From positions 1-64,000 of IMG/VR virus record IMGVR_UViG_3300037313_001751: a DNA stretch of 64,000 nucleotides; one strand, written 5' to 3'. Source of the stretch: a virus. Its lineage: Duplodnaviria; Heunggongvirae; Uroviricota; Caudoviricetes. The notes beneath the pieces were generated by a model, which saw only the letters and a list, made by a program, of their open reading frames with translations, ran no database searches and was not told where the DNA came from. Of this stretch, positions 11,134-48,982 are shown piece by piece (position 1 is the stretch's first letter; each line of letters begins with the position of its first letter). Position numbers and translations under genes: made by a program.

Positions 11134-11136
11134 GAA

Positions 11137-11346: not shown

Positions 11347-11350
11347 CACA

Positions 11351-15808: not shown

Positions 15809-15832
15809 GCCTAACCTTGTATCCTTTTCCTC

Positions 15833-16027: not shown

Positions 16028-16084
16028 CCGAACACCTTATGTTGCTTACGCATTATACGATGTTCAAATAGCTAAGCAAACGTC

Positions 16085-16327: not shown

Positions 16328-16372
16328 TAAAATACCTTTCTAAAATGGAGCGGCTCGAGGGATGCGAACTGC

Positions 16373-16600: not shown

Positions 16601-16653
16601 TTAAAGTCCTTAAAAACATGGTCCATAACCGACGGCTTGGCTCCAGGAAACGA

Positions 16654-16729
16654 TGGCACCGGTGGGGAGCATCGACCTCCCAACCTGCGGGTTTGGAATC
16701 CGCTGCTCTACCAATTGAGCTACACCGGC
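16654..16729 (-). tRNA. tRNA-Trp (anticodon CCA)
   Basis: Acceptor GCCGGTG/CACCGGT, D arm GCTC-AATTGGTA-GAGC, anticodon loop TTCCAAA, encoded CCA; ORF-track entry 16610..16804 overlaps it and is spurious. Confidence 0.65.
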
Positions 16730-16809
16730 ATAATGTTTGGTTCTGGAGGTTAGCCGCGCGCTAACTCTTCGCTTAATGCCACCCATCGGTCGTAGGGTGT
16801 CCATTTGTT

Positions 16810-16887
16810 TGGTGCCCCCAGTGGGAGTTCAACCCACCTTTCTGCCTTGAGGGGGCAGCGTTCTCAGCGACCATAAACTATGGGGGC
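16810..16887 (-). tRNA. tRNA-like element with non-canonical loops (anticodon loop CCCUCAA: C33, nominal anticodon CUC)
   Basis: Perfect acceptor GCCCCCA/TGGGGGC with discriminator A and encoded CCA; D arm GTTT-(11 nt)-GAAC; anticodon stem CTGCC/GGCAG; T arm GTGGG-TTGAACT-CCCAC lacking the canonical C56. Confidence 0.4.
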
Positions 16888-28924: not shown

Positions 28925-29440
28925 TTATACAGTGGTTGGTTTTAATGGTGCGACTATAGTTATCATATCGCGGCCATTCAATGTGATCGGTTTCTCTATT
29001 TTGTGTTCCCTAAGGTTTCCAAGAAAGTTTTCAAGCACAATACGTCCTCTATCGGCATAGTTCAGTTCACGACCTTTAAATTTTACAATGACTTTGACCT
29101 TATCACCATCAGTTAAGAAACCTTGTGCCTTTTTTGCTTTTAGTTCTACATCCCGTGTATCGGTAACCGGTCGCAGCTGGATTTCCTTGACATCCACCTG
29201 TGCTGCCCGTGACTTCTTTGCTATTTCCTTTTCACGTTTCTCTAGATCATAGCGAAACTTACCGTAGTTTAGTATTTTAGCAATTGGTGGAGACGCGTCT
29301 CTGATTATCACAAGGTCAAGATTTTGTTGTCTTGCTTGGTATAGTGCGTCACGCGTTGCGACAATCCTATTCTCGTCATCATCAACAAGTCTAACTTCCC
29401 GTGCTGTAATATATTCGTTAACCGAATGGTCTATTGTCAC
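28925..29440 (-). CDS. infC: translation initiation factor IF-3
   Basis: EVRLVDDDENRIVATRDALYQARQQNLDLVIIRDASPPIAKILNYGKFRY...VKEIQLRP...KVKVIVKFKGRE matches IF-3 N and C domains throughout. Confidence 0.9.
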   Translation of the reverse strand: MTIDHSVNEYITAREVRLVDDDENRIVATRDALYQARQQNLDLVIIRDASPPIAKILNYGKFRYDLEKREKEIAKKSRAAQVDVKEIQLRPVTDTRDVELKAKKAQGFLTDGDKVKVIVKFKGRELNYADRGRIVLENFLGNLREHKIEKPITLNGRDMITIVAPLKPTTV

Positions 29441-29455
29441 AAATCAACTCCAAAT

Positions 29456-30700
29456 TCAACCTGTCTTTAATAGTTCCTTATATTCCTTAATAAGGATGGG
29501 GTTCTCTAAGCCATTTATCACATCTTTGCTAATGCGAACTTTTACAACGCCTTCGTCGCGTAGTTCGGCTAAAGTGAATTGAATTGGTAATAAACGCTTC
29601 TCAAGCACACCGCGCAAACCCCGCGCACCGGTCTTACGCTCGATTGCTCGTTTGGCGACTTGGCGCAGCGCGTCGGCATCAAATTCGAGCTCGATTTTTT
29701 CTAATTGGAAAAGTTTTGCAAATTGCTTAATTAGTGCGTTCTTCGGCTCCTGGAGGACTTGGACTAGCTGGTCTTCGGTCAATTCATCAAGATGAACTAT
29801 AATCGGCAGGCGCCCAACTAATTCAGGAATAAGGCCGTATTTGACCAAATCTTCCGGTTCGACTTGAGGAAGATAATTGTTTTGCTTCTCCTCACTTACT
29901 GCCTCAAGCCGTGAGCCATATCCAATCTTATTTTTATTCTTATTGAGTCTCTCACCGATTATTTCATTTAAGCCAACAAATGCGCCTCCAACGATAAAAA
30001 GGATATTCTTCGTGTTAACAATGATGGTTTCAGCCTGTGGATGTTTGCGGTTGCCTTGCATTGGCACACGGACCTCAGTGCCTTCGATGATTTTGAGGAG
30101 CGCCTGCTGAACGCCTTCTCCAGACACGTCCCGAGTGATTGACACGTTATCGCCTCGTTTGGCTTTCTTCTCTATTTCATCGATAAAAATAATCCCTCGC
30201 TCAGCTTTCGACACATCGCCATCGGCAACTTGCACCAACCTGGTAATGATTGTTTCGACGTCATCGCCAACATAGCCGGCTTCGGTAAGAGAGGTTGCGT
30301 CAGCAATAGTGAATGGAACATCTAATAGTTTTGCTATACTTTGTGCAATCAGCGTTTTTCCAGATCCCGAAGGGCCGAGTAATACCAGATTAGACTTTTC
30401 TAGCTCCACATCGTCAATAATAGGAAATTCGAGCCGCTTGTAATGGTTGTTAATTGCAACACTCATCACCATCTTGGCTTCTTCCTGGCCAATAACATAG
30501 TCGTCCAGGAATTTCATAATTTGCTTGCAAGTTGGAACCTTGTTTTTCTTCTGTGTTACGGCACCTTCTTTAAGAATCTCTGAGCACACCTTAATGCAAT
30601 CGTCGCAAATATATACGTCAGGGCCAGCGATCAATTTTTTGACCTGCGTTTGCTGCTTAGCGCAGAACGAACAGCTCAGAGTCTTTTTTGATTCGGTCAT
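29456..30700 (-). CDS. clpX: ATP-dependent Clp protease ATPase subunit ClpX
   Basis: N-terminal zinc-binding CSFCAKQ...CDDC; Walker [11 protein letters not shown]; Walker [10 protein letters not shown]; GYVGDDVE pore loop; sensor and C-terminal ClpX regions. Confidence 0.9.
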
Positions 30701-30708
30701 TAGATATC

Positions 30709-31332
30709 CTATGACATTGGATAGTAAGTAGAACCACTAGCATCCGCCACAAAATTTACCGTGATTTTGGACTCAGCGGCTGCAATATCATCCGCAAGCG
30801 GTCCAGCATTTACTGCAATCAAACTCTCCCCATAATGATAATTCGGATCTGAGAAGGCGGTCGGGTCGATAACTGGATAATTGTCTACATTTACGTTTGC
30901 CACCAATGCGCGTGCGATCCACCGCTTTATGGCATCATCATTATAAAGCATTTCTCCTGGATTCAGTTCGTCATATGCATATAGATAGTCTGGGCGGTCA
31001 TATACAACTGTAAAATCCATTGTAGTTGCTTGCGCTGAGGCTGTCGCTCCTGTTGCAGAGACATTCTTTATTGCGAAAGGCGTCACCGTGCTTGCCAGTT
31101 GGCTAACAATTGAGTTCCACCGGATGTTGCCACGGGCTCTCGCTGCTGCGTTCGCTGCGTTGGTCGGCCATCCGCTTGACATATCATATGTGCCGCCTGA
31201 ACCTGGAGTTATATAGCTATTAGCCGGCAGATTGTCTATAAAGCCATCACCTGGTGCACTTGCTGTAACGCCAGCTATGCTGACAGTGTAAAACAAAAGA
31301 TCTTGCGACATACAGCCACCTTTCAAACACAA
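30709..31332 (-). CDS. hypothetical protein
   Basis: 207-aa ORF, Ala/Asn-rich. Confidence 0.5.
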   Translation of the reverse strand: MCLKGGCMSQDLLFYTVSIAGVTASAPGDGFIDNLPANSYITPGSGGTYDMSSGWPTNAANAAARARGNIRWNSIVSQLASTVTPFAIKNVSATGATASAQATTMDFTVVYDRPDYLYAYDELNPGEMLYNDDAIKRWIARALVANVNVDNYPVIDPTAFSDPNYHYGESLIAVNAGPLADDIAAAESKITVNFVADASGSTYYPMS

Positions 31333-31425
31333 ATATTATCAATATATTTAGTTAGCAAAGAGTTAGATTGCCAAATTTCTCCCAACGTCATAATTAACGA
31401 GTATCAGTTTTGAAATAGGAATAAG

Positions 31426-33345
31426 ATGACTACGCTCACAAAAGACGACCTTACAGACAATATTCATCAATTGGCCTATCGTGACCATGCACGGCTCAAG
31501 ACCGAAATGTACTTGGGATCACGCAGCCTGCATACCCAATCGATCCTTTGCTTGCCAGATTCTGACAGCTTGTTTATCAATATCAACGAGTCCTTTAACG
31601 CTACTGGAATGCAATTAGAGGAGATTAGTTGGGTTCAGGCCTTGGCTACTTACGTGCGTGAGATCATTGATAATGGTCTTGATGAATTTGCACACGGTTA
31701 TGGATCACGACTCGACGTTACCTACAACGCTGCAACTTGCGAAATTACCGTGAAGGATGACGGGCGAGGCATACCGATTGATCATGCAGTCGCAGCTTTA
31801 ACCCAACCTATGACTGGCCGTAATTTTGGAGAAAGAAAGGAGATTGTTGGCACAAATGGATATGGCGCATCAGCTGTTTCGAACACATCGGAATATTTCG
31901 ATTTCACAGTGTGTCAAACTGGCAAGAAACTAGAATGTTCGATTCGAGAAGGCGAGCCGAAAATAGGCGGCAAACTCGAGATCTCTGAACCTCAAGTGAC
32001 TAGCTATAGAGGCAGCCACACCGGCACGATGATTTCCTTCAAGCCCAGCAAACATGTATTTAGACATTTGACATTGCCGGACAGGTTTTTGAAAACCCGG
32101 ATGTTTGAGATTGCAGTGTGCAACCCACATTACAAAATTTATTACAATGGAGAATTGTTAAAAATTAAATCACGGATAGAAAGCTCTCTCTTTCCTAACC
32201 GAAAAACGATCCGCATAGAAGTAGTTAATTCGCCGATGAAATTTAAGAGCATCTTTTTCCTCGTGCCTAAATTTGTCGAATCAGGCGATCACTATCATAC
32301 GCTTGTTAACAACATATTCGCCCATAATGGCGGCATCCACATTGACACATTTAAGCGTGTTTTTCCAGGGTCTTTACTACGAGCATTAGAGAGGGAGTCC
32401 AAAAGGCGCAAACTGGTGCCAAACCGTTCTGATATCAGCGAAGGATTGCTTGTCTACAACATAACCACTATGCAACAGCCTGATTTTGATAGCCAGTCGA
32501 AATCACGGCTCATCAATGAGGACGCTGGCGACATCATACGTCGGTTTTTCGAAAATGACGATTTCATCAAATCCTTTATAAAGGAGAATGCCGAATGGAT
32601 TGACGAGATCTATCAACGCTGCGCAGACCGGACGCAAAGGCGTGATGCAAGTGAGCTATCGAAATTAAGCAAGAAGGTTCTTCGCAACAAAGTGCCTGGA
32701 TTGATGGATGCCACAGCTTCCCGCCGAAATGATTGCATCCTTTTCCTTGCAGAAGGTGATTCGGCCATTGGCGGCATGGCAAGTGTGCGGAATCCCGAAA
32801 TTCATGGCGGCCTTGCGTTGCGCGGCAAAATCATGAATGTAAATGGTGAAAACCCGAAGAAAGTTTTGGATAATAAATGCCTCACCGAGATTATGAATTC
32901 GATTGGCCTTGTGATTGGCCAGGAGGCTAAGCGTCATAATTTAAGATATGGCAAGGTGTACCTTGCAACCGATATGGACCATGACGGCTTCAATATTGCT
33001 GCGTTGTTGATAAACTTTTTCTACACATATTGGCCTGAATTGTTTAACCCTGAACAACCACCATTTGTCTACGTATTTCAAACGCCGTTCGTTATCGCAG
33101 AAAAAGGCCGGCACAGAAAATACTGGTACGCGCATGATTACAACGGTTTCGATCCTAAGGATTATGTTGGCTGGTCAATCACTCGGGCAAAAGGCTTGGG
33201 AACCCTCAGCGAATTAGATTGGGAACATTCGATGCATAATCCGATTTTGATGCCGATAGTTGAAGACGGTAATTTGCATGATTCTTTGGATCTGATCTTT
33301 TCGCCAAAGAAGGCCGATGCAAGGAAACAGTGGATTGGACTCTAA
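31426..33345 (+). CDS. type II DNA topoisomerase, ATPase + Toprim subunit (T4 gp39/gp60-like, GyrB/ParE-related)
   Basis: GHKL ATPase motifs (EIIDNGLDE, VKDDGRGIP, GTNGYGAS); Toprim ILFLAEGDSA...; DMDHDGFNI acidic motif. Confidence 0.85.
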   Translation: MTTLTKDDLTDNIHQLAYRDHARLKTEMYLGSRSLHTQSILCLPDSDSLFININESFNATGMQLEEISWVQALATYVREIIDNGLDEFAHGYGSRLDVTYNAATCEITVKDDGRGIPIDHAVAALTQPMTGRNFGERKEIVGTNGYGASAVSNTSEYFDFTVCQTGKKLECSIREGEPKIGGKLEISEPQVTSYRGSHTGTMISFKPSKHVFRHLTLPDRFLKTRMFEIAVCNPHYKIYYNGELLKIKSRIESSLFPNRKTIRIEVVNSPMKFKSIFFLVPKFVESGDHYHTLVNNIFAHNGGIHIDTFKRVFPGSLLRALERESKRRKLVPNRSDISEGLLVYNITTMQQPDFDSQSKSRLINEDAGDIIRRFFENDDFIKSFIKENAEWIDEIYQRCADRTQRRDASELSKLSKKVLRNKVPGLMDATASRRNDCILFLAEGDSAIGGMASVRNPEIHGGLALRGKIMNVNGENPKKVLDNKCLTEIMNSIGLVIGQEAKRHNLRYGKVYLATDMDHDGFNIAALLINFFYTYWPELFNPEQPPFVYVFQTPFVIAEKGRHRKYWYAHDYNGFDPKDYVGWSITRAKGLGTLSELDWEHSMHNPILMPIVEDGNLHDSLDLIFSPKKADARKQWIGL

Positions 33346-34711
33346 CACAATGACTTGGACAAGTATGCAACCGAGCGATTATATCCTAACAACCTCACAT
33401 GGATTTTCCGTCTACGCGTGTGAATCGCGTGCCATTCCGAAAGTAACTGATGGACTAAAAGATTCGCAGCGCAAAATGCTATGGATAATGAGGAACAAGT
33501 CCGACAAACTTAAAACAATATCTTTAGCAGGAGAGTGCATCAGTAGTAACCTATACCTTCATGGCGACCAGTCGGCATCTGACACAATTTCGATGATGGC
33601 AGCACCGTTTTGCAATAATGTTCCCTTGTTCGACGGTATCGGATCATTCGGGACGAGGACTGCGCCCACCGGCTGGGGCGCAGCACGTTATACATACGTT
33701 AAGCGCGGCAAAGCTGCTCAGCACCTCGTATACCCGGACCTTGACATTATTCCGTTAAAGGAAAATTATGATGGCTCAGCAATGGAGCCGATACATTTCT
33801 TGCCGATCATCCCGTTGGTGCTTCTAAACGGAATATCGGGGATAGCCGTTGGCTATTCAACGGACATCTTATCCCGGTCACTACAAGACCTAATTGATGC
33901 CTGCATAAGCGTCCTTGACAACAAAGTTCCAGCAAGCCTACGCCCTGCCTATACCTACCTCAATTGCTCTGTTGCTCCAATTGGCCTAAACGTATGGGAA
34001 TTTTCGGGCAAAGTAGCGATAATTGATACGTCAACAATCCGTGTTTATGAACTGCCTCCTGAACTAACACTTGAAAAATTCAAAGAGCGGCTGAATGAAT
34101 TCGAGGATAAAGGTCACATCAATAGCTATACCGACCGCTCAACTAAAGCAATCGATATAACAATCAAATTTCCTCGTGGTTCAATTAGGGATTGGACGGA
34201 TGAACAAGCTGTTGATTTCCTCAAACTAAAGCAGAAAAAAACTGAGCGAATAGTTGTTATTGATTGGAGTAATGATAGGATTCGACAATATCCATCAGCT
34301 GAACAACTTGTTGCTGATTTTGTCAACTGGCGGCTTAAATGGTACACGACACGATACGAAAGTAAGCTTAAAAGCGCTTCTTATGAACTCCAGTTTTGGC
34401 GGGGAATCAAGCTCTGCTTTGAGAAGGATATGCCGTCCCGTTTGCTGGCGCGCATTAACAAAAAAGAAGTTGAAGCTGACGTGTTCGACTTGACGAAATC
34501 ATTGGCCCTGGATGAAAAGCAGGTTGAACGGATTGCTGCGTTACCAACGTATCGCTGGTCACGAGAGGGTTTGGAGTTGGCCGAAGTAACTATTGATGAA
34601 CTCCAGCGCAACACTGCTGAATACAACTTGATTTTGTCTGACGAAAAGGCCATTAGGTCCATCTACAAGAAGGAACTAATGGCCCTTAAAAAGGTAAAGC
34701 TAGCTACCTAG
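33317..34711 (+). CDS. type II DNA topoisomerase, DNA breakage-reunion subunit (T4 gp52-like, GyrA-N-related)
   Basis: ESRAIPKVTDGLKDSQRKMLWIM (GyrA RALPDVRDGLKPVHRR pattern); active-site region GAARYTYVK; overlaps upstream subunit by 29 nt. Confidence 0.85.
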   Translation: MQGNSGLDSNTMTWTSMQPSDYILTTSHGFSVYACESRAIPKVTDGLKDSQRKMLWIMRNKSDKLKTISLAGECISSNLYLHGDQSASDTISMMAAPFCNNVPLFDGIGSFGTRTAPTGWGAARYTYVKRGKAAQHLVYPDLDIIPLKENYDGSAMEPIHFLPIIPLVLLNGISGIAVGYSTDILSRSLQDLIDACISVLDNKVPASLRPAYTYLNCSVAPIGLNVWEFSGKVAIIDTSTIRVYELPPELTLEKFKERLNEFEDKGHINSYTDRSTKAIDITIKFPRGSIRDWTDEQAVDFLKLKQKKTERIVVIDWSNDRIRQYPSAEQLVADFVNWRLKWYTTRYESKLKSASYELQFWRGIKLCFEKDMPSRLLARINKKEVEADVFDLTKSLALDEKQVERIAALPTYRWSREGLELAEVTIDELQRNTAEYNLILSDEKAIRSIYKKELMALKKVKLAT

Positions 34712-36410
34712 TTGCAAACACGCAGAATGATGCGCCATTCTGATGATGCGGTTCGTCCAAAAATACATCGGTACTGAACCCCTCATCAGATAGGATGTTG
34801 AGGATATCTTCCTTCCTCAACCATTTGCTGCCCTCTGCAGAGCCGCCGCAAAATCCAGCCCATTCCAGGGCATGCAGGTACTGTTGACCATACATGGCAA
34901 CTGTTCTACCATGTCTTGTAGTTACTTGTTCAGGCGAAAAATTAAACTTATTCCGTTGCTCGTGCTGCTCCATTACAGCGGGATCGAAATAGTGGGTCCA
35001 CAACCCTATAGCGCGCGCAACCCTACACATATTTTGCAGGACAGACACGGGATCCGTCATATGGTACAACACCCCAGACGCTAGCAGGAAATCATAATGG
35101 CTGGTGGGGTTTTCGAGATATTTGGTGAAGTCGCCGAGCAAAAATGTTGCCCCGTCGAGTTTTAGATGATTCTTTACGACCAAACAGCGTTGCCAGGCTC
35201 TCACATTTGACTCGATGCCAAGCACGCGTGCGCCACGTTGTGTCATCATATATGTGTGCCCAGCCTCAAGTGGGCCTAGTTCTAACACATGTTTGCCAAC
35301 AAAGCCACCAAGCCGCTTCTCGAAACCAATAATCCTTTGGTCATTGAAAAGTTCAGCATAGCCGGTATCAGCTAGTCCTGGAACCTTAGAACTCCACTCG
35401 CCTTCAAAGACACGAACTGCATTTTGTGGCGCTGGCTTCCAATCAACATATCTGGGAATTGCCGGTGCTTTTTCAATTTGTGGCTTCGGTAATGTCACTG
35501 GCTCGTCGAGAACATGTTGTTCAATATCGAGGAGAGTCGGCTCACCGGCGAGAAGCCAGTCTATTTGTGCCTTCTGCTCTAACAGCGTGCGTTTTAAAAG
35601 ACGCATTCGCCTTCTATTGAACTGGTCGTCCGAATAAGCTTGTGCAATGCGCTTTCCTCCTCGCCTAAGCCACACGTAGAATTCACAACCAGTTGCATCA
35701 GTGGACCGATCAACCCTCAGGTCGATTTTTCCGAGGCGCGATAGCTCTAACACTATAAGTTCGAACGATGCCGGTGTGAAATGCCATGCATGTAAGTCGT
35801 GATATTGATCGTCATTTGCATAAAGGGCGAGTTTTTCTGCTGCTTCGCCAAAAGTATGGATGAAATTAAGTGATTGTGTTGGCCATTGACCCCACGTAAT
35901 GCTGCCTCCGCTTGCTACAGCGTATCCATAATGCTGGAAAGCTGCACTTGGGTTGTGGCGCGACGACCCCTCAGCCCTAAGCACATCGCCAGTAGTGGTA
36001 ATAGGTTGGAATGCATCGAAGATATAGCGTTTATCGGGAACAGCAAGGATTACGGTGCCATCTTCTTTTAGCAACTGACCAGCACTGTTAAAAAACCCGA
36101 TCAAATCGGTTACATGTTCAATGACATGACTGGCGATAAAAGCATCAAACTGTCCATGCAGCTCTACCGGCACTACGTCGCATATCGCACCCTGTTGCCA
36201 AACGTAATCAACATCCTCGATGTTCGAAACATCAACATTCGCGTGGCCGGCATATTTTTCGATGAGTCCATTCCGATCTGTGTGATCAACAACCTTCGTA
36301 TTCCAGCCGTCGCGTTTTGGAGCGATCGGACTTGTGCTTGGGCCGATTTCGAGGAGCAGCGCCGCGTCGCGATGTAAACGTGACAGCAATGTATCTGCGC
36401 GTGATGACAT
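34704..36410 (-). CDS. tandem class I SAM-dependent methyltransferase-domain protein
   Basis: 568 aa; two Rossmann MTase-like regions (…AFIASHVIEHVTD…DGTVILAVPD and …VLELGPLEAGHTYMM…DFLLASGVLYHMTDPVS). Confidence 0.65.
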   Translation of the reverse strand: MSSRADTLLSRLHRDAALLLEIGPSTSPIAPKRDGWNTKVVDHTDRNGLIEKYAGHANVDVSNIEDVDYVWQQGAICDVVPVELHGQFDAFIASHVIEHVTDLIGFFNSAGQLLKEDGTVILAVPDKRYIFDAFQPITTTGDVLRAEGSSRHNPSAAFQHYGYAVASGGSITWGQWPTQSLNFIHTFGEAAEKLALYANDDQYHDLHAWHFTPASFELIVLELSRLGKIDLRVDRSTDATGCEFYVWLRRGGKRIAQAYSDDQFNRRRMRLLKRTLLEQKAQIDWLLAGEPTLLDIEQHVLDEPVTLPKPQIEKAPAIPRYVDWKPAPQNAVRVFEGEWSSKVPGLADTGYAELFNDQRIIGFEKRLGGFVGKHVLELGPLEAGHTYMMTQRGARVLGIESNVRAWQRCLVVKNHLKLDGATFLLGDFTKYLENPTSHYDFLLASGVLYHMTDPVSVLQNMCRVARAIGLWTHYFDPAVMEQHEQRNKFNFSPEQVTTRHGRTVAMYGQQYLHALEWAGFCGGSAEGSKWLRKEDILNILSDEGFSTDVFLDEPHHQNGASFCVFATR

Positions 36411-36413
36411 CCC

Positions 36414-39400
36414 TTACAATCCCTCCCAGGGCTTCGTGCGGCGTGTTGGCGTTGCTAGTTTGAACGTATGATCGACGTAGTCGAAATTTGGATTATAGAA
36501 TGGATCCATATCTAACTGGCGACCCCATTTTTGCCGCATATACGCCTGGGACCTACGATAGCGATGTATCTTATCGGGGTCTTCATCCGATCCTCGGCTC
36601 GCTGACTCGTAGTGGAACAATTCAGCAAAGGGCGTCCATACAACTTTTAGTCCGTGTTCTCGCACACGCAAACAAAAATCGACATCGTTATATGACACGG
36701 GTAAATTGTCAGCATCAAGCCCTCCCAGTTCAAGGTACAGTTCTTTTGTTACAGCAAGACATGCGCCGGTCACAGCACTAACCTCGCGTGTCAGTGCATA
36801 CTGCCCTACGTAACCACCGCTATTTTCATCATCATAGTGTCCAAAATGTCCTGCAACACCATCGGTGCCGACTCCAACAACAACGCCAGCATGTTGAATC
36901 CGACCATCGCCGTATAGCAGTTTTGCGCCGACAACACCCACATCTGGCCTAGATACGATCGACACCATCTCGCGCAACCAGTTTCGATCTTTGACCTTTG
37001 TGTCATTGTTAAGCAAGACTAAAATATCGCCACTGCTTTCCTTAGCTCCGAAATTGTTGATCGCCGAATAATTGAAAGGTCCGGGGTAAGAGACCACCCG
37101 GATATTGGACGTCTTAGAATATTGCTCAAGTAGGAATAGCGCACTCTCCTCCTTGCTGCCATTGTCGACAATAACCACCTCAAAATTATCATAATCAGTA
37201 TCTAGGACACCACCAATACACTGCGACAGCAAGCTAGCCCTGTCCCGTGTCGGTATAATAATTGAAACTTTTGGCGTTGGCACTGGCAGTGGCCAAATAA
37301 CACGGCTCCATTCAGCAGCCAACTTCGCCGGCGCAACTTTTGCACCTTTGATATGTTTACTGTGTAGGTAGTCGGCAATTGCTCGCCGCGCAGCGGCAAC
37401 ACACTGGTCCAGTTGCGACTGAGAAAACGAGCCCTTTTCGGGGTCGAGACGCCAGTGATACAGCACGGCTGGAATATGATAAATTTTGTCCGTTTTCGCG
37501 GCACACCTCAGCGTGAGATCATAATCCTGGCTGCCGTCAACAATGCCTTCCCTGAAGCCGCCGACTGATTCGACCAACGACCGCCTATAAACACCTAGGT
37601 GGCTGAACATATTGTGGCCGAACATAAGGTCAATGTTGAAATCTGGCTTGAAATACGGCTGGAGGCGTCTCTTGTCCGGCCCCATCCGATCTTCGTCGCT
37701 GTAGATCATATCGAGGCTTTTGTTATCATTAAGCGCCACTACAACTTCATACATTGCGGTCTCTGCTAAGAAATCATCATGGTCCATCAGCAGGATGAAC
37801 TCACCCTTTGCTAATTTTATCGCAGAGTTACTCGCAGCGGCTATATGGCCGTTTGTGGAACGCCATGTAACTTTGATCCGCTTATTTTTCGATGCCTCCC
37901 TCCGAATAGCTCTCCGTGTCTCTTTGTTGGTTGATGCGTCGTCAGCGATGCACAATTCCCAGTTGTCATATAGCTGTGCTTCGATACTTGCGATCGCGTC
38001 CCTGAGATAGCTTGGCTTTGTATTGTATGTTGGCATAACCACGGAAATTAGTGGCTTGTATTGCAGTTTGGCGATGTGGCTCCTTATTAGCTCGCGATCT
38101 CGTGAAGTCAGCGTATCGTTGTGCCGCACCCAATTATCGTAATCTGTCGGCTCAAAACCACCCCGTGCCGGCTCTTTCCTTCTGTCGCCTATTAGTGACG
38201 TCAGCCGGCGTCGCACATTCACTGGAACATATGATCCTAACACTCGCACCGGCGCAGTAGCCCGCCACATTGTTGAGTTCTTCAACATGTCGCGTTCAGC
38301 CTGCACACTGCTAAGCTGCGCCTGCATAGCGTGCAGGTGGTTCCGCAATGCGTTGATCTCTTCGACATCGGTCACAACTTGAACCGGTGACTGCGCCTGG
38401 GGCGCGGCAAGTCTCAGAGCCTCAGACAGCGCAGCAGACAGCCTCGCTTTCTCAGCGTTTGCGACGGATGCGATGGAGGTCAGACGACCAATTTCATTTC
38501 GCAAAGTGTCTGTCTCATCGACATGTTTGTTTGTAGCAGCCTCTAGTTGCTGAATACGGCCGACGCTTTTCTGAAAGCTTATTCGCTGTTCGTCTAGCTG
38601 GTTCGATAAGAGCGCAATCTGCGTTTCCATTTGTTCTGATTGTGCTTGCGCAGTCGTCATTTTTGCAGTAAGCGCGTCGATTTCTTGCAGTCGTGTAGCA
38701 TCGGCGACATTGTGATCAGCTACTACCTTAGCTAATTCTGCGTGTTTATCACTTAACTCTTGCTGCTTTTGATTGAGCTGCACTTGTAGGCCTGCTAACT
38801 GACTACGCAGGGACGAAAGGTTTAACCGCTGGCGAATTAATTCGACAAACCCATGCAGCAAATCGCGGGTTACCGGCCCCTTTTGCAACAGGAAAGCGTG
38901 TGGCGCTATAAACGATGCATCAAACGTTGTTACGGGTGCAAACCCAACGTCTGCAAATTTGTTAAGCCACCAAATTGTTGGCTTAACATTTATGTGGGTC
39001 GGTTCTATGATGTCGATTGGTGAAGATGAAAACAGCACGCGTGGTGCCGCATCGGCCATATTGTAAATTGCCTGTAGCGCCTCTTCTTCGCTCATATGTT
39101 CAAGCACCTCGATGCAGACGATCAAATCGAAGATGCCATTAAATCGATCTGTTAAACTCCCTTGTTCCACAAACGGCCGTACATCTGGCCTTACCTGGGA
39201 CACAGCAAAATTGGAAATATCCCTTCCATACGCTTCAATACCCCGATCCCATAATGCCTCCACCAAAAACCCATGTGCACAGCCAGCGTCAAATACTGTT
39301 TTCGGTGCGAGACTGCGCACAATCTCATCGGCTATGCCGCCAAAAAACAACCCCCATTCGGGCTCTTCGCGAGCATAGGGTTTTTGCCCGCAATGCGTCC

Positions 39401-39455
39401 GATAATAATCAGCGTTATAAGTCTCGTCCACGTCGTATCCAGTTTGTTCGTCCAT
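36414..39455 (-). CDS. multidomain glycosyltransferase: N-terminal SAM-MTase + coiled-coil + two family-2 glycosyltransferase (GT-A) domains
   Basis: 1013 aa; MTase motif I VFDAGCAHGFLVEAL; GT2 #1 ISVVMPTYNTKPSYLRDAIASIEAQLYDNWELCIADDAS; GT2 #2 VSIIIPTRDRASLLSQCIGGVLDTDYDNFEVVIVDNGS; DxD-type acidic motifs present. Confidence 0.8.
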   Translation of the reverse strand: MDEQTGYDVDETYNADYYRTHCGQKPYAREEPEWGLFFGGIADEIVRSLAPKTVFDAGCAHGFLVEALWDRGIEAYGRDISNFAVSQVRPDVRPFVEQGSLTDRFNGIFDLIVCIEVLEHMSEEEALQAIYNMADAAPRVLFSSSPIDIIEPTHINVKPTIWWLNKFADVGFAPVTTFDASFIAPHAFLLQKGPVTRDLLHGFVELIRQRLNLSSLRSQLAGLQVQLNQKQQELSDKHAELAKVVADHNVADATRLQEIDALTAKMTTAQAQSEQMETQIALLSNQLDEQRISFQKSVGRIQQLEAATNKHVDETDTLRNEIGRLTSIASVANAEKARLSAALSEALRLAAPQAQSPVQVVTDVEEINALRNHLHAMQAQLSSVQAERDMLKNSTMWRATAPVRVLGSYVPVNVRRRLTSLIGDRRKEPARGGFEPTDYDNWVRHNDTLTSRDRELIRSHIAKLQYKPLISVVMPTYNTKPSYLRDAIASIEAQLYDNWELCIADDASTNKETRRAIRREASKNKRIKVTWRSTNGHIAAASNSAIKLAKGEFILLMDHDDFLAETAMYEVVVALNDNKSLDMIYSDEDRMGPDKRRLQPYFKPDFNIDLMFGHNMFSHLGVYRRSLVESVGGFREGIVDGSQDYDLTLRCAAKTDKIYHIPAVLYHWRLDPEKGSFSQSQLDQCVAAARRAIADYLHSKHIKGAKVAPAKLAAEWSRVIWPLPVPTPKVSIIIPTRDRASLLSQCIGGVLDTDYDNFEVVIVDNGSKEESALFLLEQYSKTSNIRVVSYPGPFNYSAINNFGAKESSGDILVLLNNDTKVKDRNWLREMVSIVSRPDVGVVGAKLLYGDGRIQHAGVVVGVGTDGVAGHFGHYDDENSGGYVGQYALTREVSAVTGACLAVTKELYLELGGLDADNLPVSYNDVDFCLRVREHGLKVVWTPFAELFHYESASRGSDEDPDKIHRYRRSQAYMRQKWGRQLDMDPFYNPNFDYVDHTFKLATPTRRTKPWEGL

Positions 39456-39514: not shown

Positions 39515-39548
39515 GCAGGCCAATAAAAAAGGTCCTTGGCGGACCTTT
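39515..39548. terminator. bidirectional hairpin terminator
   Basis: AAAAAAGGTCC-TTGGC-GGACCTTTTT flanked by A-run and T-run between two minus-strand genes. Confidence 0.55.
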
Positions 39549-39562
39549 TTGCATCACCCCGT

Positions 39563-40690
39563 TCAATAAAATAAGTCTATTTCAAATCCCTCCAGTGTCG
39601 TAATGTGATTTGATATACGAAAACAATCCAAACAGCGCAAATCTGCCTTTAAAATTCGAAGCGCAGAATAGCTGTGACTTGGAGCCCTTGACTCAATTAT
39701 CGGCGCCTCTAAATAACTTCGTACCAGCACATCATTGGTGTAGGTAGTTTTTATTTGGAAGCTGTGGCACATACCAAAAGTGCCATCCTGCAGTTTGACA
39801 ACGATGATGCAGTCATCACGAAGCGCAGCTATATCATCATATTCGATAGGGTCCAGACATGGGACGCTTTGCGATTGCAAGTTGCCAGCGCCCGTAAATC
39901 CAACAACTGCCGGAAAGCACAGGCAGTCAAGCCCTTGTTTTGCGATATAGGAGTTGAGTTCTTCGAGCGCTCCTGCTTTAGTTTTTTCCTCACTTTTGGT
40001 TATTTCGCTGACCTTTAACGCTGCAATCAGCTGTAACGACTTAGGGATGTGACTTCCATCCTCAAAGACAGCAAGCACAGCTCGCTTCGTGCGGCATACC
40101 TCTGCCGTGTGTGTTTGTGATGCCTTTGTGATGGGGTAATATGTCCCTAGATAAACGCCAGACAAGCCATCAACTGTCACGACGTGGTTGCCGACTTTTA
40201 ATTTGCGCAAACTGACGCGTTTGTTCATCCTGCCTGTATTACGCACGGCATTTTGATACTGCACACCAGATGTTGGGATCAAAATGTTATGGCTAGCGAA
40301 TGCTGCCCAAACACATTCTTCTAAGATTTCTCCTTGCACAATTGAACAGCTTTGCGTCAGTTGGCTCGCATTCAATGTCGTTACAGCTACCGTAAACCCT
40401 CGTGGGTCTTCAACTATCCACTCAACTGACCCATTATTTGTGTGACTGCCTTCACCGGTCAGCCGGAAGCCGACAAGCGGCTCGTTCGTTATCGTCCTAG
40501 CCGGTAGTGGCTCTGAGCGACTAAGTGGCCATCTAGCCCAACTATCGATTGCAGCTTTATAGCGGCATGTTTTGCTATCATCACCATCAGGTGTCATCAT
40601 AGCCCTCATTCCAGAGCGGCTTATTGGCTTGAATCTAACGTAAAACGTCTGAGGTAAATTAAGATGAGTTTGCTCTAATTTTGGCAGCAT
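39563..40690 (-). CDS. hypothetical protein
   Basis: 375-aa ORF. Confidence 0.5.
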   Translation of the reverse strand: MLPKLEQTHLNLPQTFYVRFKPISRSGMRAMMTPDGDDSKTCRYKAAIDSWARWPLSRSEPLPARTITNEPLVGFRLTGEGSHTNNGSVEWIVEDPRGFTVAVTTLNASQLTQSCSIVQGEILEECVWAAFASHNILIPTSGVQYQNAVRNTGRMNKRVSLRKLKVGNHVVTVDGLSGVYLGTYYPITKASQTHTAEVCRTKRAVLAVFEDGSHIPKSLQLIAALKVSEITKSEEKTKAGALEELNSYIAKQGLDCLCFPAVVGFTGAGNLQSQSVPCLDPIEYDDIAALRDDCIIVVKLQDGTFGMCHSFQIKTTYTNDVLVRSYLEAPIIESRAPSHSYSALRILKADLRCLDCFRISNHITTLEGFEIDLFY

Positions 40691-41040: not shown

Positions 41041-41655
41041 GTGAGGGCGATAACTGCTGCGCTTGTATTGTCAGTGCTGGCACCATCTGCGGTCGCTACC
41101 AATAGCAGTCACCAGCACCAGCACCGACACCACAATGGTATTGTTCACAAAGCACCGAAGACTCCTGGCACCAACATAAATGACTTGGTACGTGCCATAT
41201 CTAAGAGCCGCGAATTTCCACTAGATCCAACGCTGAGGAAACTGCCTATAAAGCAGCGGCGAAATGCAACATGTCTCGCCCTCGCTATATATCACGAGGC
41301 GAGGTCTTCGTCTGAGCCAGATAAAAAAGGCGTAGCACATGTAGTGGTAAATAGGCTCAAATCGGGTGGTTTCGGGCGCACAGTGTGTGACGTTGTCAAT
41401 GAGCGGTTGCCGCATGTCACTATCCCGCAATTCTCCTGGCTGTTAGAGCACCAGAAAGCGTTGCTTCCAACTGAGGATGACGCGTGGCTTGAAGCACAAC
41501 AGATCGCGCTATCAGTGCTAAACTCCCATTCGGAAGATCCGTCAAAGGGGTCAACATATTTTTGGGCCCTCAACATGACAAAACACCAATCGTGGATGCG
41601 CACGGGGAAAGCATACTACCACATAGGCAGCCACGTGTTTATGGTTGGGCGCTAA
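41041..41655 (+). CDS. secreted cell-wall hydrolase, SleB family (Hydrolase_2); candidate endolysin
   Basis: Signal peptide MRAITAALVLSVLAPSAVA; LALAIYHEARSSSEPDKKGVAHVVVNRLKSGGFGRTVCDVVNE...QFSW matches the SleB-domain core (IYAEARGE...G..AV..VV.NR........C.VV.Q..QFS). Confidence 0.7.
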   Translation: MRAITAALVLSVLAPSAVATNSSHQHQHRHHNGIVHKAPKTPGTNINDLVRAISKSREFPLDPTLRKLPIKQRRNATCLALAIYHEARSSSEPDKKGVAHVVVNRLKSGGFGRTVCDVVNERLPHVTIPQFSWLLEHQKALLPTEDDAWLEAQQIALSVLNSHSEDPSKGSTYFWALNMTKHQSWMRTGKAYYHIGSHVFMVGR

Positions 41656-42095
41656 ATCTCAACGACAGCGCTGTTTCCGCTGTGTTCTCGCACCTCTACT
41701 GACTGTACAAAACAACGTCCAGCTGACTGCTGCTGAATGAGCTGGTTGGTGTAGTTGTAGATCAGTTCTGCAAACTTCTCGCAACCGGTCCCTGCAACAA
41801 TCCGTAAATCAATTAAACCTCGTTCGCTCAGCTCCTTAAAAACCTCCAATTCTGGGTCGTCCTCTGCCACACAGCATGTGTGGTCAAACATATCTTTTAG
41901 CCATTCCTTAATCTCCTTAAGTCCACCAAAGTCGACGACCCAATTTCGCTCGTCAAGGTATGTCGCTCCAAAAACGAATTTTACACTCAAGGCATAGCCA
42001 TGGATTAGTCTACAATGGCTAGTGGCACGCCACTGCCGGAATGAGCATGACAGTCCTTCATTATGATCATATGTTTTCGTCGATAGATACTTCAT
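41652..42095 (-). CDS. queD: 6-pyruvoyl-tetrahydropterin synthase / QueD-like
   Basis: 147 aa; CRLIHGY...VVDFGGLKEIKEWLKDMFDH fits the PTPS/QueD zinc-site and DF..LK pattern. Confidence 0.6.
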   Translation of the reverse strand: MKYLSTKTYDHNEGLSCSFRQWRATSHCRLIHGYALSVKFVFGATYLDERNWVVDFGGLKEIKEWLKDMFDHTCCVAEDDPELEVFKELSERGLIDLRIVAGTGCEKFAELIYNYTNQLIQQQSAGRCFVQSVEVREHSGNSAVVEI

Positions 42096-44716: not shown

Positions 44717-45841
44717 TTAGTGTACATCGTCAGCGGCAATGGCTTCGTTAAAGCGCAGTCTCACCGTGGTGCCACGGCCTTCACGTGTTTCGAGATATAG
44801 CCATCCACCGCTCTGCACCATAAAACCATTCACCATTGGAAGACCTAGCCCGGTTCCCCTGCCGTCTTTCGTCGTAAAAAATGGATCCAATGCGTGATCT
44901 GCTGTAAACCGATCCATCCCGCGACCGTTATCGGTTACTGTCAACTCAACAAACATTGAGTCTTCGCGAATGCCGTCCACCAACTGTGTTCGAACGACTA
45001 TCACACCCTTCCCCTCAATTGCATCAGATGAATTTTTTACGAGGTTTAGCAACGCCAATTCTAACTGTGCAGTATCAACCTCGATCATTAATGGAGAGTT
45101 TGACAGCGCAAACCGAATGTTGACGCCCTTTTTTACTGTTTGGCTTATCATACGGTCGAATCCCTTAATAACTTGATTAAGATCCACGATTGCTGTTTTT
45201 GGCGCTTGTTTGCGGGCTAGTGATAGCATTTGGGTTGCAAGTACGCTCGCCTGTTCGAAACCCCAGACTACACGCTCAAGGTTCCTCCTTTGCTTTTGGC
45301 TTACTGCCTCTTTCTCTGCGGCGTAAGCGGCATGCGACACAACTTGAATAATATTGTTAAACTCGTGGCCGATGCTTGCCGCTAATGTTCCCAGAGCCTT
45401 AAGGCGCTCTGTGTGGATTCTATCTTGCTCAGTCATTTTTCGTTGACTCACATCGACAACGTTAGCGAAGAAGTAGGTAATTTGGCCTGCATCGTCACAC
45501 ACAGGCGCAACCGTTACAAGGCACCAAACAGGAGTCCCATTTGCGGTGTAGAGAAGCAGTTCTTCTGCACAACATGCTGAACGGCCAAGCGCGTCTTCCA
45601 AGCGATCAAGATTGCATCTGTTTGTCTCGACTCCTGCCAGGAGTGACAACGGCTTGCCATTGATATCGGCCTGAGCATAGTGGAATAGGTGGCAAAATTC
45701 ATCACTACTATGTACTATCGGCTTAGATGGGTGGTTTGGATCAATCAGCGCAAAATTGAGGCCATTCAGTTGCTTTATTATACGAGGGAAATCAACATTT
45801 GTGCTGCAAACTGACTGCCGCAGTATGCTGGTTGTATGCAT
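44717..45841 (-). CDS. cytoplasmic sensor histidine kinase (PAS + HisKA + HATPase_c)
   Basis: H-box LAASIGHEFNNIIQVV; N-box LLNLVKNSSDAI; G1 VTDNGRGMD; G2 GRGTGLGLPMV; N-terminal PAS-like region; no TM segment. Confidence 0.85.
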   Translation of the reverse strand: MHTTSILRQSVCSTNVDFPRIIKQLNGLNFALIDPNHPSKPIVHSSDEFCHLFHYAQADINGKPLSLLAGVETNRCNLDRLEDALGRSACCAEELLLYTANGTPVWCLVTVAPVCDDAGQITYFFANVVDVSQRKMTEQDRIHTERLKALGTLAASIGHEFNNIIQVVSHAAYAAEKEAVSQKQRRNLERVVWGFEQASVLATQMLSLARKQAPKTAIVDLNQVIKGFDRMISQTVKKGVNIRFALSNSPLMIEVDTAQLELALLNLVKNSSDAIEGKGVIVVRTQLVDGIREDSMFVELTVTDNGRGMDRFTADHALDPFFTTKDGRGTGLGLPMVNGFMVQSGGWLYLETREGRGTTVRLRFNEAIAADDVH

Positions 45842-46689: not shown

Positions 46690-47076
46690 CTATCCTTTTC
46701 TGCTTTCGATTACCTCCCGGATTTTGGTATTAAGTTTTTTCGGCATATAGGGTTTGGTTATTATGTCTACCGCCACATAGTCGCTTTCGAGTTTTAGGAT
46801 CTCCTCGGAATATCCCGTCGTCAATAGGATTGGCACTGACGGCCGCACTTTGGCCAGGTGTTTCGCAACCTCAAAGCCTGATACGTTGTCGGGCATCTTT
46901 ACATCGGAGAAAACAATGTCCAGCCTCTGATCCAGATTATCAATGATCGTTACCGCTTCGACCCCGTTATTTGCAGAGACGACCTCATAGCCAAACTCCT
47001 CTAAAAGCTCCTTTGACATTTGATGTAATGGCTCATCGTCCTCAACAAGAAGCACAATATATGGTGGTTGGTCCAC
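46690..47076 (-). CDS. single-domain response regulator (CheY-like receiver)
   Basis: 128 aa; acidic pocket LLVEDDE; phospho-acceptor region DIVFSDVKMP; T at LLTTGYS; no output domain. Confidence 0.85.
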   Translation of the reverse strand: MDQPPYIVLLVEDDEPLHQMSKELLEEFGYEVVSANNGVEAVTIIDNLDQRLDIVFSDVKMPDNVSGFEVAKHLAKVRPSVPILLTTGYSEEILKLESDYVAVDIITKPYMPKKLNTKIREVIESRKG

Positions 47077-47756: not shown

Positions 47757-48677
47757 TTAAACACCAGTCTGGGTGTTTGTAATGGTAGCTACGTCCCTTG
47801 TTGCTGGAGCTCGAAGGTTTGACGCAAGTGCATCTTGGCGCTCGTTGACAAATCGGTTGGTAATTGAAGCTGCATAAGTATTGCCTTGAATGCTCGCAGT
47901 CCTCGCGTCATAAATTGTATTAACGAAGTCGCTTCCAGACATTGACGAGATATTTTTGCCTTGTAACGCTGCTGCCATTCCATTAGCGGCGCCGGCTGGC
48001 CCTGCGTGGACAGCCCAGCTATAAAATGCCTGCTGCACACCCAAAGGCTGTGCATTTATATCCACCCCTGTTGTTGCAAGAAGCTTTGCAACTGCTGGAT
48101 CATAATGGGTGGCTTGGATGAAATCGTCCTGATCTTGTGCAAACTGTGGATTGTTAGCAGCCTCATTTTTCCATGCAGCAACAAAGGTTGGATCACCTGT
48201 CGCAGCGGCTTGCGCGCCGCCTGCGTTGACTAAGTTTGCGTAAGCAGCTGGATCTGTTTTCTGCAATTGATTGAGGAAATTATTCATTGTGCCAGGTCCT
48301 GTGGCTATTTGGTACGCCCCGTATGATGGGCCGCCTTTATCACCAGGATTATTGCCAAACGCACCATAGTCACCAGTGCTTTCATATTTTTTTGAAAGTC
48401 CGCCAATTGACGGATCGACTGCTCGATTTGGCGCCGCTATGTTTGCACCAAGGCCAGTCGCATGCTGGCTTCCAGCCGCAGTATAACCACCACCAGGTCC
48501 AGCATTGCCAGCGCCACCGGGACTGCCATAAGCCGGCACTGTCCCGCCTCTACTCCGATCTTGGCCTATCGGCGTGCCATCAGGCGCTTTACCTTTCGAC
48601 GTGTCAGGTGCTGGAGACAGTTCTGCGGCAGAACCAGCAGCACCACCTGAGGATCCGCCACCACAATTGCACGCCAT
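47757..48677 (-). CDS. glycine-rich virion-associated protein with putative lytic transglycosylase (SLT-like) motifs
   Basis: 306 aa; N-terminal G/S/A-rich low-complexity region; KKYESTGDYGAF...GGPSYGAYQIATG (ES catalytic and G-x-x-Q motifs) and FYSWAVHAGPAG (AYN-G-like); directly upstream of the PAAR gene. Confidence 0.45.
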   Translation of the reverse strand: MACNCGGGSSGGAAGSAAELSPAPDTSKGKAPDGTPIGQDRSRGGTVPAYGSPGGAGNAGPGGGYTAAGSQHATGLGANIAAPNRAVDPSIGGLSKKYESTGDYGAFGNNPGDKGGPSYGAYQIATGPGTMNNFLNQLQKTDPAAYANLVNAGGAQAAATGDPTFVAAWKNEAANNPQFAQDQDDFIQATHYDPAVAKLLATTGVDINAQPLGVQQAFYSWAVHAGPAGAANGMAAALQGKNISSMSGSDFVNTIYDARTASIQGNTYAASITNRFVNERQDALASNLRAPATRDVATITNTQTGV

Positions 48678-48691
48678 ATGTCGTCTCCGAT

Positions 48692-48982
48692 CTACTCAAA
48701 AAATACATCTTGGCTTCCAGTTGCAACCCGACTTCCACAGGTTATCGGGTCATTCATTCGGCCCACCTGCTTGCCGTTTGCAAATACCGTTTGTGATCCC
48801 GAAGCGAGCATGCCGTCATGGCAGCCTTTTTTATTGCAACAATGCACGGCCCACTTATCCCCTTGTCGATGCGCTCCACGATTATTAAAGAACACGTCGG
48901 GGCTGCCTTGCACCGCTTGTCGGCTCGGAAAACAATCGTGCCCGCTGCAGGTGTCATTGATCCTTGCGACGCCTGGCATCAA
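48692..48982 (-). CDS. PAAR-repeat protein (spike tip; T4 gp5.4 / T6SS PAAR-like)
   Basis: 96 aa; ARINDTCSGHDCFP...GSPDVFFNNRGAHRQGDKWAVHCC...GCHDG...SGSQTVFANGKQVGRMNDPITCGS...GSQDVFF, three PAAR-type repeats. Confidence 0.8.
   Translation of the reverse strand: MMPGVARINDTCSGHDCFPSRQAVQGSPDVFFNNRGAHRQGDKWAVHCCNKKGCHDGMLASGSQTVFANGKQVGRMNDPITCGSRVATGSQDVFFE

Follow-up and report, generated by a model that had tools for sequence, protein, structure and literature searches.

Introduction

ORF6 of Klebsiella pneumoniae O7 (ORF6-O7) combines in a single polypeptide an N-terminal methyltransferase (MTase)-containing terminator, a coiled-coil ruler and two C-terminal glycosyltransferase (GT) modules of family 2 (GT2), and mutagenesis has demonstrated that a DXDD motif in the first and an NXD motif in the second of these define two modules which depend on dTDP-rhamnose (dTDP-Rha) and form alpha-1,2 and alpha-1,3 rhamnose linkages; homologues of the protein have been reported in alphaproteobacteria (Kelly et al. 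2024, PMC11231755). Here we describe a two-gene cassette of similar design within a stretch of 64,000 nucleotides (positions 1 to 64,000 of IMG/VR record IMGVR_UViG_3300037313_001751, hereafter the window), which is part of a jumbo phage with relatives among the phages of Sinorhizobium and Agrobacterium. Gene 1 encodes a protein of 1013 amino acids with the same order of MTase, coiled coil and two GT2 modules and with DXDD and NXD in modules 1 and 2, respectively, while gene 2 encodes a double MTase of 568 amino acids. We propose, at a probability of about one half, that this is an accessory cassette by which the phage remodels the surface rhamnan or O-antigen of its host through a methyl-capped rhamnan of set length.

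ORF6-O7 differs from the gene 1 protein by its size of 1414 amino acids, an extra kinase and a domain resembling carbohydrate-binding modules, and by its methyl-phosphate cap; in addition, it requires a separate ribofuranosyltransferase, is encoded in a chromosomal rfb locus with wzm/wzt and has no double-MTase partner (PMC11231755). Since the gene 1 protein lacks a kinase, a plain O-methyl cap is predicted for its product. The O8-type terminator is an MTase alone. A further counterpart is WsaE of Geobacillus stearothermophilus NRS 2004/3a, which consists of an N-terminal O-MTase and two rhamnosyltransferase domains and makes an alpha-1,2/alpha-1,3 L-rhamnan with a 2-O-methyl cap; its gene adjoins wzm/wzt and rmlABCD, a neighbourhood that is also seen at bacterial homologues of gene 1 (PMC2943079). 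In contrast to the phage protein, WsaE belongs to a Gram-positive organism, its product is attached to an S-layer protein, its methylation in vitro does not depend on the length of the chain, and the text consulted describes no coiled-coil ruler (PMC2943079). In WbbB of K. pneumoniae/Raoultella O12 and in WbdD/WbdA of Escherichia coli O8/O9a the terminator is likewise placed distally on a coiled-coil ruler with the polymerising GTs at the opposite side; WbbB differs by its beta-3-deoxy-D-manno-oct-2-ulosonic acid (Kdo) transferase terminator and its GT99, GT102 and GT103 modules, and WbdA by its mannosyltransferase modules, which reside on a separate protein (PMC11231755, PMC3482155).

A virus-encoded system of comparable logic is A064R of chlorovirus PBCV-1, which contains two rhamnosyltransferase domains and a 2-O-methyltransferase, and the parallel extends to gene 2, as PBCV-1 A061L methylates the same rhamnose after A064R-D3; A064R differs in that it belongs to a eukaryotic virus, has the order GT-GT-MTase, comprises other GT families, lacks a coiled coil and adds single residues to the N-glycan of the capsid instead of forming a polymer (PMC9614988). 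For jumbo phages and giant viruses, multi-GT proteins and clusters of GTs with O-MTases have already been reported, a remodelling of surface polysaccharides by jumbo phages has been put forward in print, and the clusters of jumbo phages and cyanophages were proposed to pre-empt superinfection (Iyer et al. 2021, PMC7824862). Unlike the present cassette, these clusters and the O-antigen conversion systems of temperate phages are single-domain multi-gene sets or systems of the periplasmic face, and none of them is described as a terminator-ruler-polymerase fusion of an ABC-transporter pathway. In temperate phages, gtrABC, oac and the iap/wzy-beta genes of phage D3 have been shown or proposed to change the surface glycan of the host and to prevent superinfection.

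Results

Both open reading frames (ORFs) are co-oriented on the minus strand, with gene 1 upstream, a gap of 3 nt between them and a GGGAGGG Shine-Dalgarno sequence upstream of gene 2 (Table 1). The initial annotation, made from the nucleotide sequence without database searches, had described the larger protein as an N-terminal MTase, a coiled-coil spacer and two GT domains of the GT-A family 2 type, and the smaller one as two MTase folds; Pfam matches and AlphaFold2 (AF2) models bear out both descriptions, including the coiled coil of ~195 residues, and the positions of the two ORFs agree exactly with those given there. In gene 1, Methyltransf_23/11/12/25 match at residues ~50-135, and Glycos_transf_2 (PF00535) matches with an E value of 3e-46 and 157.8 bits (cutoff 23.3) in the stretches 471-630 and ~728-950. 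The AF2 model, with a mean predicted local distance difference test (pLDDT) score of 86.8, contains a Rossmann domain, long helices and two GT-A domains, whose structural matches in the Protein Data Bank (PDB) reach E values of 1e-12 to 1e-20. The GT modules are thus members of CAZy family GT2 with a GT-A fold, as the PF00535 matches above the gathering score, the fold and the DXD-type motif all agree. A transmembrane-like segment was found in neither protein.

The terminator-ruler-polymerase class is characterised by a terminator domain at one end, an extended coil and a GT pair with DXDD and NXD, all of which are present in gene 1. In the MTase domain, D56-x-G58-C59-A60, D79, D110 and E116/E119/H120 are invariant among 29 family members. 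The spacer is rich in Ala, Leu and Gln, has 1% Pro and no aromatic residue, and displays a hydrophobic heptad periodicity of 3.5 residues that was matched by only 7 of 2000 shuffled sequences, with a strong 7/3 harmonic as well; the AF2 model places helices at residues 197-246, 253-350 and 357-392, altogether ~185 helical residues. Across 121 homologues the spacer varies from 85 to 556 residues between conserved flanking modules, as expected for a ruler element. Directly after the coil follows the S394 motif given in Table 1, which together with Y439/W442 is invariant or nearly so in the same 29 members and borders a disordered stretch (407-434, pLDDT <50); this linker may serve as a docking or membrane-contact element. 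D505/D506, D558, D560 and D561 are invariant in GT2 module 1, and N816, D818, N923, D924, D926, H948 and E950 in module 2. In structural comparison, PmHS2 and K4CP, both of them two-domain polymerases, could be aligned with the two GT-A modules together over ~580 columns (E ~1e-20), and the best single-domain match of module 1 is the dTDP-Rha-dependent RmlT. The 'rhamnosyltransferase' model TIGR01556 scored 39.9 bits against a cutoff of 200.

Gene 2 matches Methyltransf_23 at residues 22-152 and Methyltransf_11/31 at 372-476, and its AF2 model (pLDDT 89.7) shows two Rossmann domains joined by a disordered linker (292-319). The N-terminal half is 55% identical to a stand-alone MTase of 319 amino acids that is encoded after one of the bacterial homologues (P0004), and its residues E21, G23, D42, D68, D89, H95 and E98/H99 are invariant. 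For the C-terminal domain, in which E377-L-G379-P-L, E400, D427 and S445-V447 are invariant, the deoxysugar O-MTase EvdMO1, solved with S-adenosylhomocysteine and D-fucose, is the best PDB match by both sequence and structure (TM-score 0.72-0.74). All three MTase domains of the cassette score above their Pfam cutoffs, and together with the similarity of the gene 2 C-terminal domain to EvdMO1 this places them among class I S-adenosylmethionine (SAM)-dependent sugar O-MTases; with 17-27% identity across the Rossmann core they represent distinct subfamilies. Judged from the alignments, the predicted catalytic residues of both proteins are intact and invariant within the family.

On this basis we propose that gene 1 encodes a soluble enzyme that would oligomerise through its coil, of the type used in ABC-transporter-dependent assembly of O-antigens or S-layer glycans. 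The two GT2 modules would alternately add L-rhamnose, or a related 6-deoxyhexose, from dTDP-L-rhamnose of the host to an undecaprenyl-diphosphate-linked primer of the host, giving an alpha-1,2/alpha-1,3 rhamnan. Once the chain spans the coil, the N-terminal MTase, ~185-195 helical residues away, would O-methylate its non-reducing end, halt its growth and so fix its length. The gene 2 protein would contribute two further and different O-MTase activities, placing extra methyl groups on the cap or along the chain. Neither rml or other sugar-nucleotide genes nor wzm/wzt, waaL or an initiating transferase gene were found in the window; supply, export and ligation would therefore have to come from the host, whose machinery would export and attach the product and thereby present an altered surface glycan on the infected cell. 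The likely benefit would be to keep rival phages, or progeny, from adsorbing to cells that are already infected.

Homology searches yielded 598 matches for gene 1, many of them full length with the same architecture (in Rhizobium, Bradyrhizobium, Tianweitania and others) and some labelled as O-antigen biosynthesis proteins, and 484 for gene 2. Ordinary chromosomes of alphaproteobacteria carry the whole pair, double MTase included, together with further MTases, a gene for RgpF ('rhamnan synthesis F') or one for a PF04989 rhamnosyl-O-methyltransferase; RgpF and PF04989 genes are neighbours in loci L108, L005 and L008. More distant full-length homologues are located in ABC-transporter-dependent loci: wzm/wzt are accompanied by rmlCBDA and an extra protein with two GT2 domains (GT2x2) in Bradyrhizobium, by GT2, RgpF, GT4 and rfbADBC in Rhizobium sp. 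and on plasmid pRt932 of R. tumorigenes, and by rmlABD, an MTase, a WaaL-like gene and rmlC in an alphaproteobacterial metagenome-assembled genome. In Azospirillum lipoferum, plasmid p6 carries wzm/wzt, then a GT of 1151 amino acids that contains the homologous GT2x2 core, and rfbCBDA directly downstream. This GT gene (locus L165, strain 4B, NC_016588.1 ~213-221 kb) adjoins a sulfotransferase gene and cysD, a hint that the bacterial system may end its chains with a terminator of the sulfate type. Taken together, rfbABCD is directly adjacent in 5/5 alphaproteobacterial loci that have the transporter. Among 45 metagenomic loci of the GT2x2 core with a length of at least 12 kb, Wzt-like proteins were detected in 20, Wzm-like proteins in 10 and RmlC/RmlA in 7-9, counts which, being made at the level of BLAST, are lower bounds.

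Indirect indications of dTDP-L-rhamnose as the donor come from the adjacent rfbABCD genes, from neighbours of the RgpF and PF04989 families, from the match to RmlT and from the pattern of motifs, in line with the rhamnan tentatively named in the initial annotation. That the GT2 modules polymerise another sugar, such as 6-deoxy-L-talose, D-rhamnose, fucose or a hexose, appears unlikely to us, albeit donor specificity of GT2 enzymes is not readable from sequence, rml genes are near only those 7-9 of the 45 metagenomic loci, and the best overall structural matches are polymerases of N-acetylglucosamine and glucuronic acid. Methylated 6-deoxytalose and fucose are also frequent in rhizobial O-antigens. 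Against another donor stand the DXDD/NXD pair, as found in the dTDP-Rha enzymes of ORF6-O7, the 5/5 transporter loci, and the rhamnose-related neighbours and single-domain match just named.

The window belongs to a jumbo phage. Its topoisomerase II subunit TopoA shares 57% identity with the counterpart in Sinorhizobium phage Phosso (469 kb) and 51% with the one in Agrobacterium phage Atu_ph07 (490 kb), these two phages also provide the best matches to a virion protein, and the order IF3-ClpX-hypothetical gene-topoL-topoA (28925-34711) is common to all three. These neighbours and this synteny support the attribution of the cassette to a phage rather than to a bacterial O-antigen locus. topoL and topoA overlap by 29 nt in the window; in Phosso four small ORFs lie between them. 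In Phosso, topoA directly adjoins the convergent gene for XYS97668.1, ~60 nt away, and it is exactly between topoA and the orthologue of the latter, a gene of 375 codons, that the pair is found in the window. As neither Phosso nor Atu_ph07 has it, we regard it as a lineage-specific insertion.

A hairpin lies 17 nt past the stop codon of gene 2; this position is in the 3' end of topoA, a convergent gene that shares 8 nt with gene 2. With a dG of -23.4 kcal/mol (z -3.35) it was equalled in stability by 0 of 200 shuffled sequences, so that the hairpin noted in the initial annotation is real in terms of stability; its role as a terminator is less certain, since its U tract comprises only 4 residues, it resides inside the topoA 3' end and it was not called by a consensus terminator scan. 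A second terminator-like hairpin, followed directly by UUUUUUAUU (dG -23.4 kcal/mol, z -2.6), separates the pair from the upstream 375-codon gene and had been overlooked before. With hairpins on both sides the pair may be taken as an insulated two-gene unit. The 375-codon gene was considered as a further operon member and rejected, because it has its own terminator-like hairpin, is kept in Phosso where the cassette is missing and shows no informative homology. Lineage-specific insertion, flanking hairpins and a clade nested within bacteria are the features of an accessory, 'moron'-like cassette.

The cassette is also found in a second phage. The metagenomic contig L009 (3.2 kb) holds the 3' part of gene 1 (84% amino acid identity) and a complete gene 2 (79%), followed by a convergent topoA C-terminus (...ILSNERAIRSIYKKELMALKKV), and therefore stems from a sister phage in which the insertion has the same position. 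Between the window and L009, the proportion of synonymous differences (pS) is 0.84, that is, saturated, while that of nonsynonymous differences (pN) is 0.10-0.14 in every domain, which indicates, at the level of sequence comparison, strong purifying selection. The GC content at third codon positions (GC3) is 0.46-0.50 and the codon usage resembles that of other phage genes, compared to a GC3 of 0.70-0.84 in the closest bacterial homologues; the saturation of pS, the low pN and the phage-like codon usage argue that the cassette is old and under selection. Neighbour joining united the window with L009 in 100/100 bootstraps, and in 100/100 bootstraps both join the copy P0001 of a 220-kb low-GC element, which has the same pair at 55% identity; this clade is nested among the alphaproteobacterial chromosomal pairs. 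Such a topology fits a single old capture of the whole cassette from an alphaproteobacterium, followed by vertical descent.

The nearest homologous pair (L001, Logan SRR10968229) is on this 220-kb element, a contig of GCA_015689235.1 with 43% GC. No phage hallmarks were recognised in its visible 23 kb, where PHROG matches were generic; that it may be a phage as well is suggested by its low GC content and by the 100/100 bootstraps in which its pair joins the phage copies. The same element encodes two FemAB-family proteins, a GT21-like GT, an isoamylase (GlgX), a ParB-like nuclease, a C39 peptidase and ribosomal protein L33.

In view of these data it is very improbable that the cassette is an inert passenger, an assembly chimera or an enzyme set for DNA hypermodification, the last of which had been listed among the possible roles in the initial annotation, and we have rejected all three. 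Although the cassette is clearly of bacterial origin and a gene resembling QueD/6-pyruvoyl-tetrahydropterin synthase (PTPS) lies 2 kb away, the junctions recur in an independent Logan contig and in the diverged sister phage, the selection is strong and the composition has been ameliorated to that of the phage genome. In Phosso, which has no cassette, a PTPS gene is found at the equivalent position, so that this gene is unrelated to the cassette; other queuosine or deazaguanine genes were not seen in the window. Moreover, the arrangement of two polymerising GT-A modules in tandem, together with a ruler, is similar to glycan polymerases, and no phage DNA glycosyltransferase is known to be laid out in this way.

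Apart from the cassette, the window encodes a split T4-type topoisomerase II, a VapE-like primase/helicase, an intein-bearing DnaB and a PAAR/VgrG3-C module, host-like genes for IF3, ClpX, MgtC and a PAS histidine kinase with a receiver protein, and many genes without a family match. The ten tRNA genes are dispersed between small ORFs, a pattern typical of jumbo phages. MgtC, the SPFH/Band-7 protein, the ABC permease and the NMT1-like protein form a group of host-like membrane and transport genes within 1845-8114. A two-component pair is composed of a PAS/HATPase histidine kinase (44717-45841, minus strand), whose best NCBIfam matches are CckA/LOV-type kinases, and a stand-alone receiver-domain protein (46690-47076, minus strand) as its partner. 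The adjacent genes for the VgrG3-C/GH46-like, PAAR and DUF7217 proteins (47757-49860, minus strand) resemble a module of tail-tip puncturing and lysin functions. The intein-splicing-domain match at the N-terminus of the DnaB-like ORF suggests an intein-interrupted helicase gene that extends upstream, possibly to the edge of the window.

Table 1. Positions of the cassette, its borders and further features in the 64,000-nt window.
Feature	Coordinates	Strand	Evidence or remarks
Gene 1, 1013 aa: MTase, coiled coil and two GT2 domains, predicted polymerase-terminator	36414..39455	-	
Class I SAM methyltransferase, predicted chain terminator, residues 1-195	38871..39455	-	Pfam, Rossmann fold in model
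Coiled-coil spacer, predicted molecular ruler, residues 197-392	38280..38867	-	heptad periodicity, AF2 helices
Linker, residues 393-467	38055..38279	-	conserved S394-x-x-W397-R-x-T-x-P, Y439/W442
GT2 module 1, residues 468-720	37296..38054	-	PF00535; DXDD D558-H-D560-D561 at 37773-37784
GT2 module 2, residues 721-1013	36417..37295	-	PF00535/PF13641; NXD N816-N-D818 at 37002-37010
Gene 2, 568 aa: double methyltransferase	34704..36410	-	
N-terminal methyltransferase, conserved partner of polymerase, residues 1-290	35541..36410	-	
C-terminal methyltransferase resembling deoxysugar O-MTase, residues 326-568	34707..35435	-	
Hairpin past gene 2 stop	34645..34687	-	inverted repeat
topoA, topoisomerase II subunit A; left border of insertion site	33317..34711	+	PF00521 E 2e-72
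Terminator-like hairpin AAAAAGGUCC-GCCAA-GGACCUUUUU, then UAUU	39522..39550	-	ends upstream 375-aa gene
375-aa conserved hypothetical gene; right border of insertion site	39563..40690	-	Phosso XYS97668.1 orthologue, E 1.5e-38
QueD/6-pyruvoyl-tetrahydropterin-synthase-like gene	41652-42095	-	~2 kb from cassette
Ten tRNA genes (Ser, Cys, Gln, Met x2, Asn, Arg, His, Trp, Glu)	174-16887	-	
MgtC	1845-2312		
SPFH/Band-7 protein	4173-4997		
ABC importer permease	6445-7170		
NMT1-like binding protein	7164-8114		
VgrG3-C-terminal/GH46-like protein	47757-48677	-	
PAAR protein	48692-48979	-	
DUF7217 protein	48979-49860	-	
DnaB-like helicase ORF	62935-63963	-	N-terminal intein-splicing-domain match

Discussion

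The kind of enzyme encoded by gene 1 is known and has been characterised in bacteria; it is its presence in a phage that is unusual. The comparison to WbdA/WbdD made in the initial annotation is apt with regard to the shared logic of polymerase, terminating MTase and ruler, whereas the single-polypeptide enzymes ORF6-O7, WbbB and WsaE fit better (PMC11231755, PMC2943079). A phmmer search of the PDB returned neither WbdD nor A064R among its matches. Overall, that annotation was largely right on the enzyme logic and too generous on the unusualness of the proteins, as the same pair is common in alphaproteobacterial chromosomes and multi-GT proteins were already known in jumbo phages. The exact subfamily, with an MTase-only terminator and a double-MTase partner, is common in alphaproteobacteria and uncharacterised.

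Among deposited phages, a nucleotide search with the cassette gave no match, and neither a full-length gene 1 protein nor any homologue of gene 2 was present. The best phage matches of the GT2x2 part in tblastn searches were short unannotated records of Enterococcus, Listeria and faecal 'Bacteriophage sp.'; these and similar INPHARED records (OR846623.1, PQ520143.1, OR848236.1 and others), with a GT2x2 protein of 36-44% identity to gene 1, probably represent bacterial DNA for cell-wall polysaccharides that came along when the phages were prepared. In IMG/VR, alignment-based scans detected GT2x2-only proteins (8 contigs) and single-domain relatives of either MTase (54 contigs), with no contig holding the pair, and single-sequence scans of IMG/VR and of GTDB genomes yielded nothing or one irrelevant match in Bacteroidales.

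Several observations weigh against remodelling of the host surface glycan as the role of the cassette. The closest bacterial pairs (L002, L008, L108 and L109) have neither wzm/wzt nor rml within 10 kb, so that a transporter-independent use of this subfamily is possible. The proposed homology to ORF6-O7 and WsaE is drawn from architecture, motifs and context and not from alignment, and the breaks between the modelled helices (247-252 and 351-356) may mean that the coil falls short of full extension. Phosso and Atu_ph07 manage without the cassette. No promoter was found upstream of gene 1, where consensus sites were no more frequent than in shuffled sequences and the best promoter-like sequence is TTGACG-N17-TACACA. 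The pathway would depend wholly on the supply and export genes of the host. Finally, where export depends on the cap, the carbohydrate-binding module of Wzt recognises a specific one, and a cap specified by the phage might escape export.

This last point leads to a quite unlikely variant, in which the phage enzyme would interfere with the host pathway by competing for primer and dTDP-rhamnose and by capping chains early or with a heavily methylated cap that is not exportable, such that the O-antigen is shortened or shut down or undecaprenyl phosphate is sequestered, and no new glycan would be displayed. Cap-dependent export needs the correct terminal modification, and improper termination blocks export (PMC11231755); the three distinct subfamilies of phage MTases may yield a cap unlike that of the host, and the phage supplies no transporter. 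However, purifying selection acts on both GT modules and on the long coil just as on the MTases, which pure capping or blocking would not require, and in bacterial chromosomes, where the full pair is likewise maintained, it presumably yields a product.

Alternatively, the cassette might glycosylate the virion or other phage proteins, attaching a methyl-capped rhamnose oligo- or polysaccharide to structural proteins of the phage, which we judge to be of low probability. With A064R and A061L there is a viral precedent for two rhamnosyltransferases, an MTase and an extra MTase (PMC9614988). The enzymes are predicted to be soluble and cytoplasmic, export and ligation genes are missing from the window, the closest bacterial pairs are similarly remote from wzm/wzt, and large multi-GT proteins are known as well from giant viruses and from further tailed phages that are uncultured. 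The glycosylation of mycobacteriophage virions would be a further parallel. Yet relatives that are characterised or annotated by context work in lipid-linked, ABC-exported glycan pathways, and neither a protein-glycosylating initiating transferase nor an oligosaccharyltransferase was found in the window. The genes around the cassette are those of replication and host takeover, it shows no linkage to structural genes, and its absence from Phosso and Atu_ph07 places it outside the core virion programme; in addition, A064R has no coiled-coil ruler for long chains. A more specific form, in which the phage specifies a length-measured, multiply O-methylated rhamnan on the virion or another phage structure and the cassette is the counterpart of A064R/A061L with a built-in ruler, apart from the host O-antigen pathway, seems rather doubtful. 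If it held, the stand-alone pairs L002, L008, L108 and L109 would mark an unrecognised, transporter-independent glycosylation system.

We therefore return to the remodelling of the host surface rhamnan or O-antigen. As the enzyme class is already understood, the gain would mainly be in phage biology. The compact and soluble pair could serve as a tool for the synthesis of methylated rhamnans of defined length, and the coil lengths of 85-556 residues within the family represent a natural test set for the ruler model. If the proposal is correct, the cassette would, with respect to INPHARED, IMG/VR and the literature searched, be the first phage-encoded complete polymerase-ruler-terminator enzyme of an ABC-transporter glycan pathway, and a jumbo phage of lytic type would be able to change the host O-antigen in composition as well as in modal length with only two genes and the precursors of the host. 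This would bear on superinfection exclusion, on the host range of rhizobial and agrobacterial phages and on surface signalling between plants and microbes.

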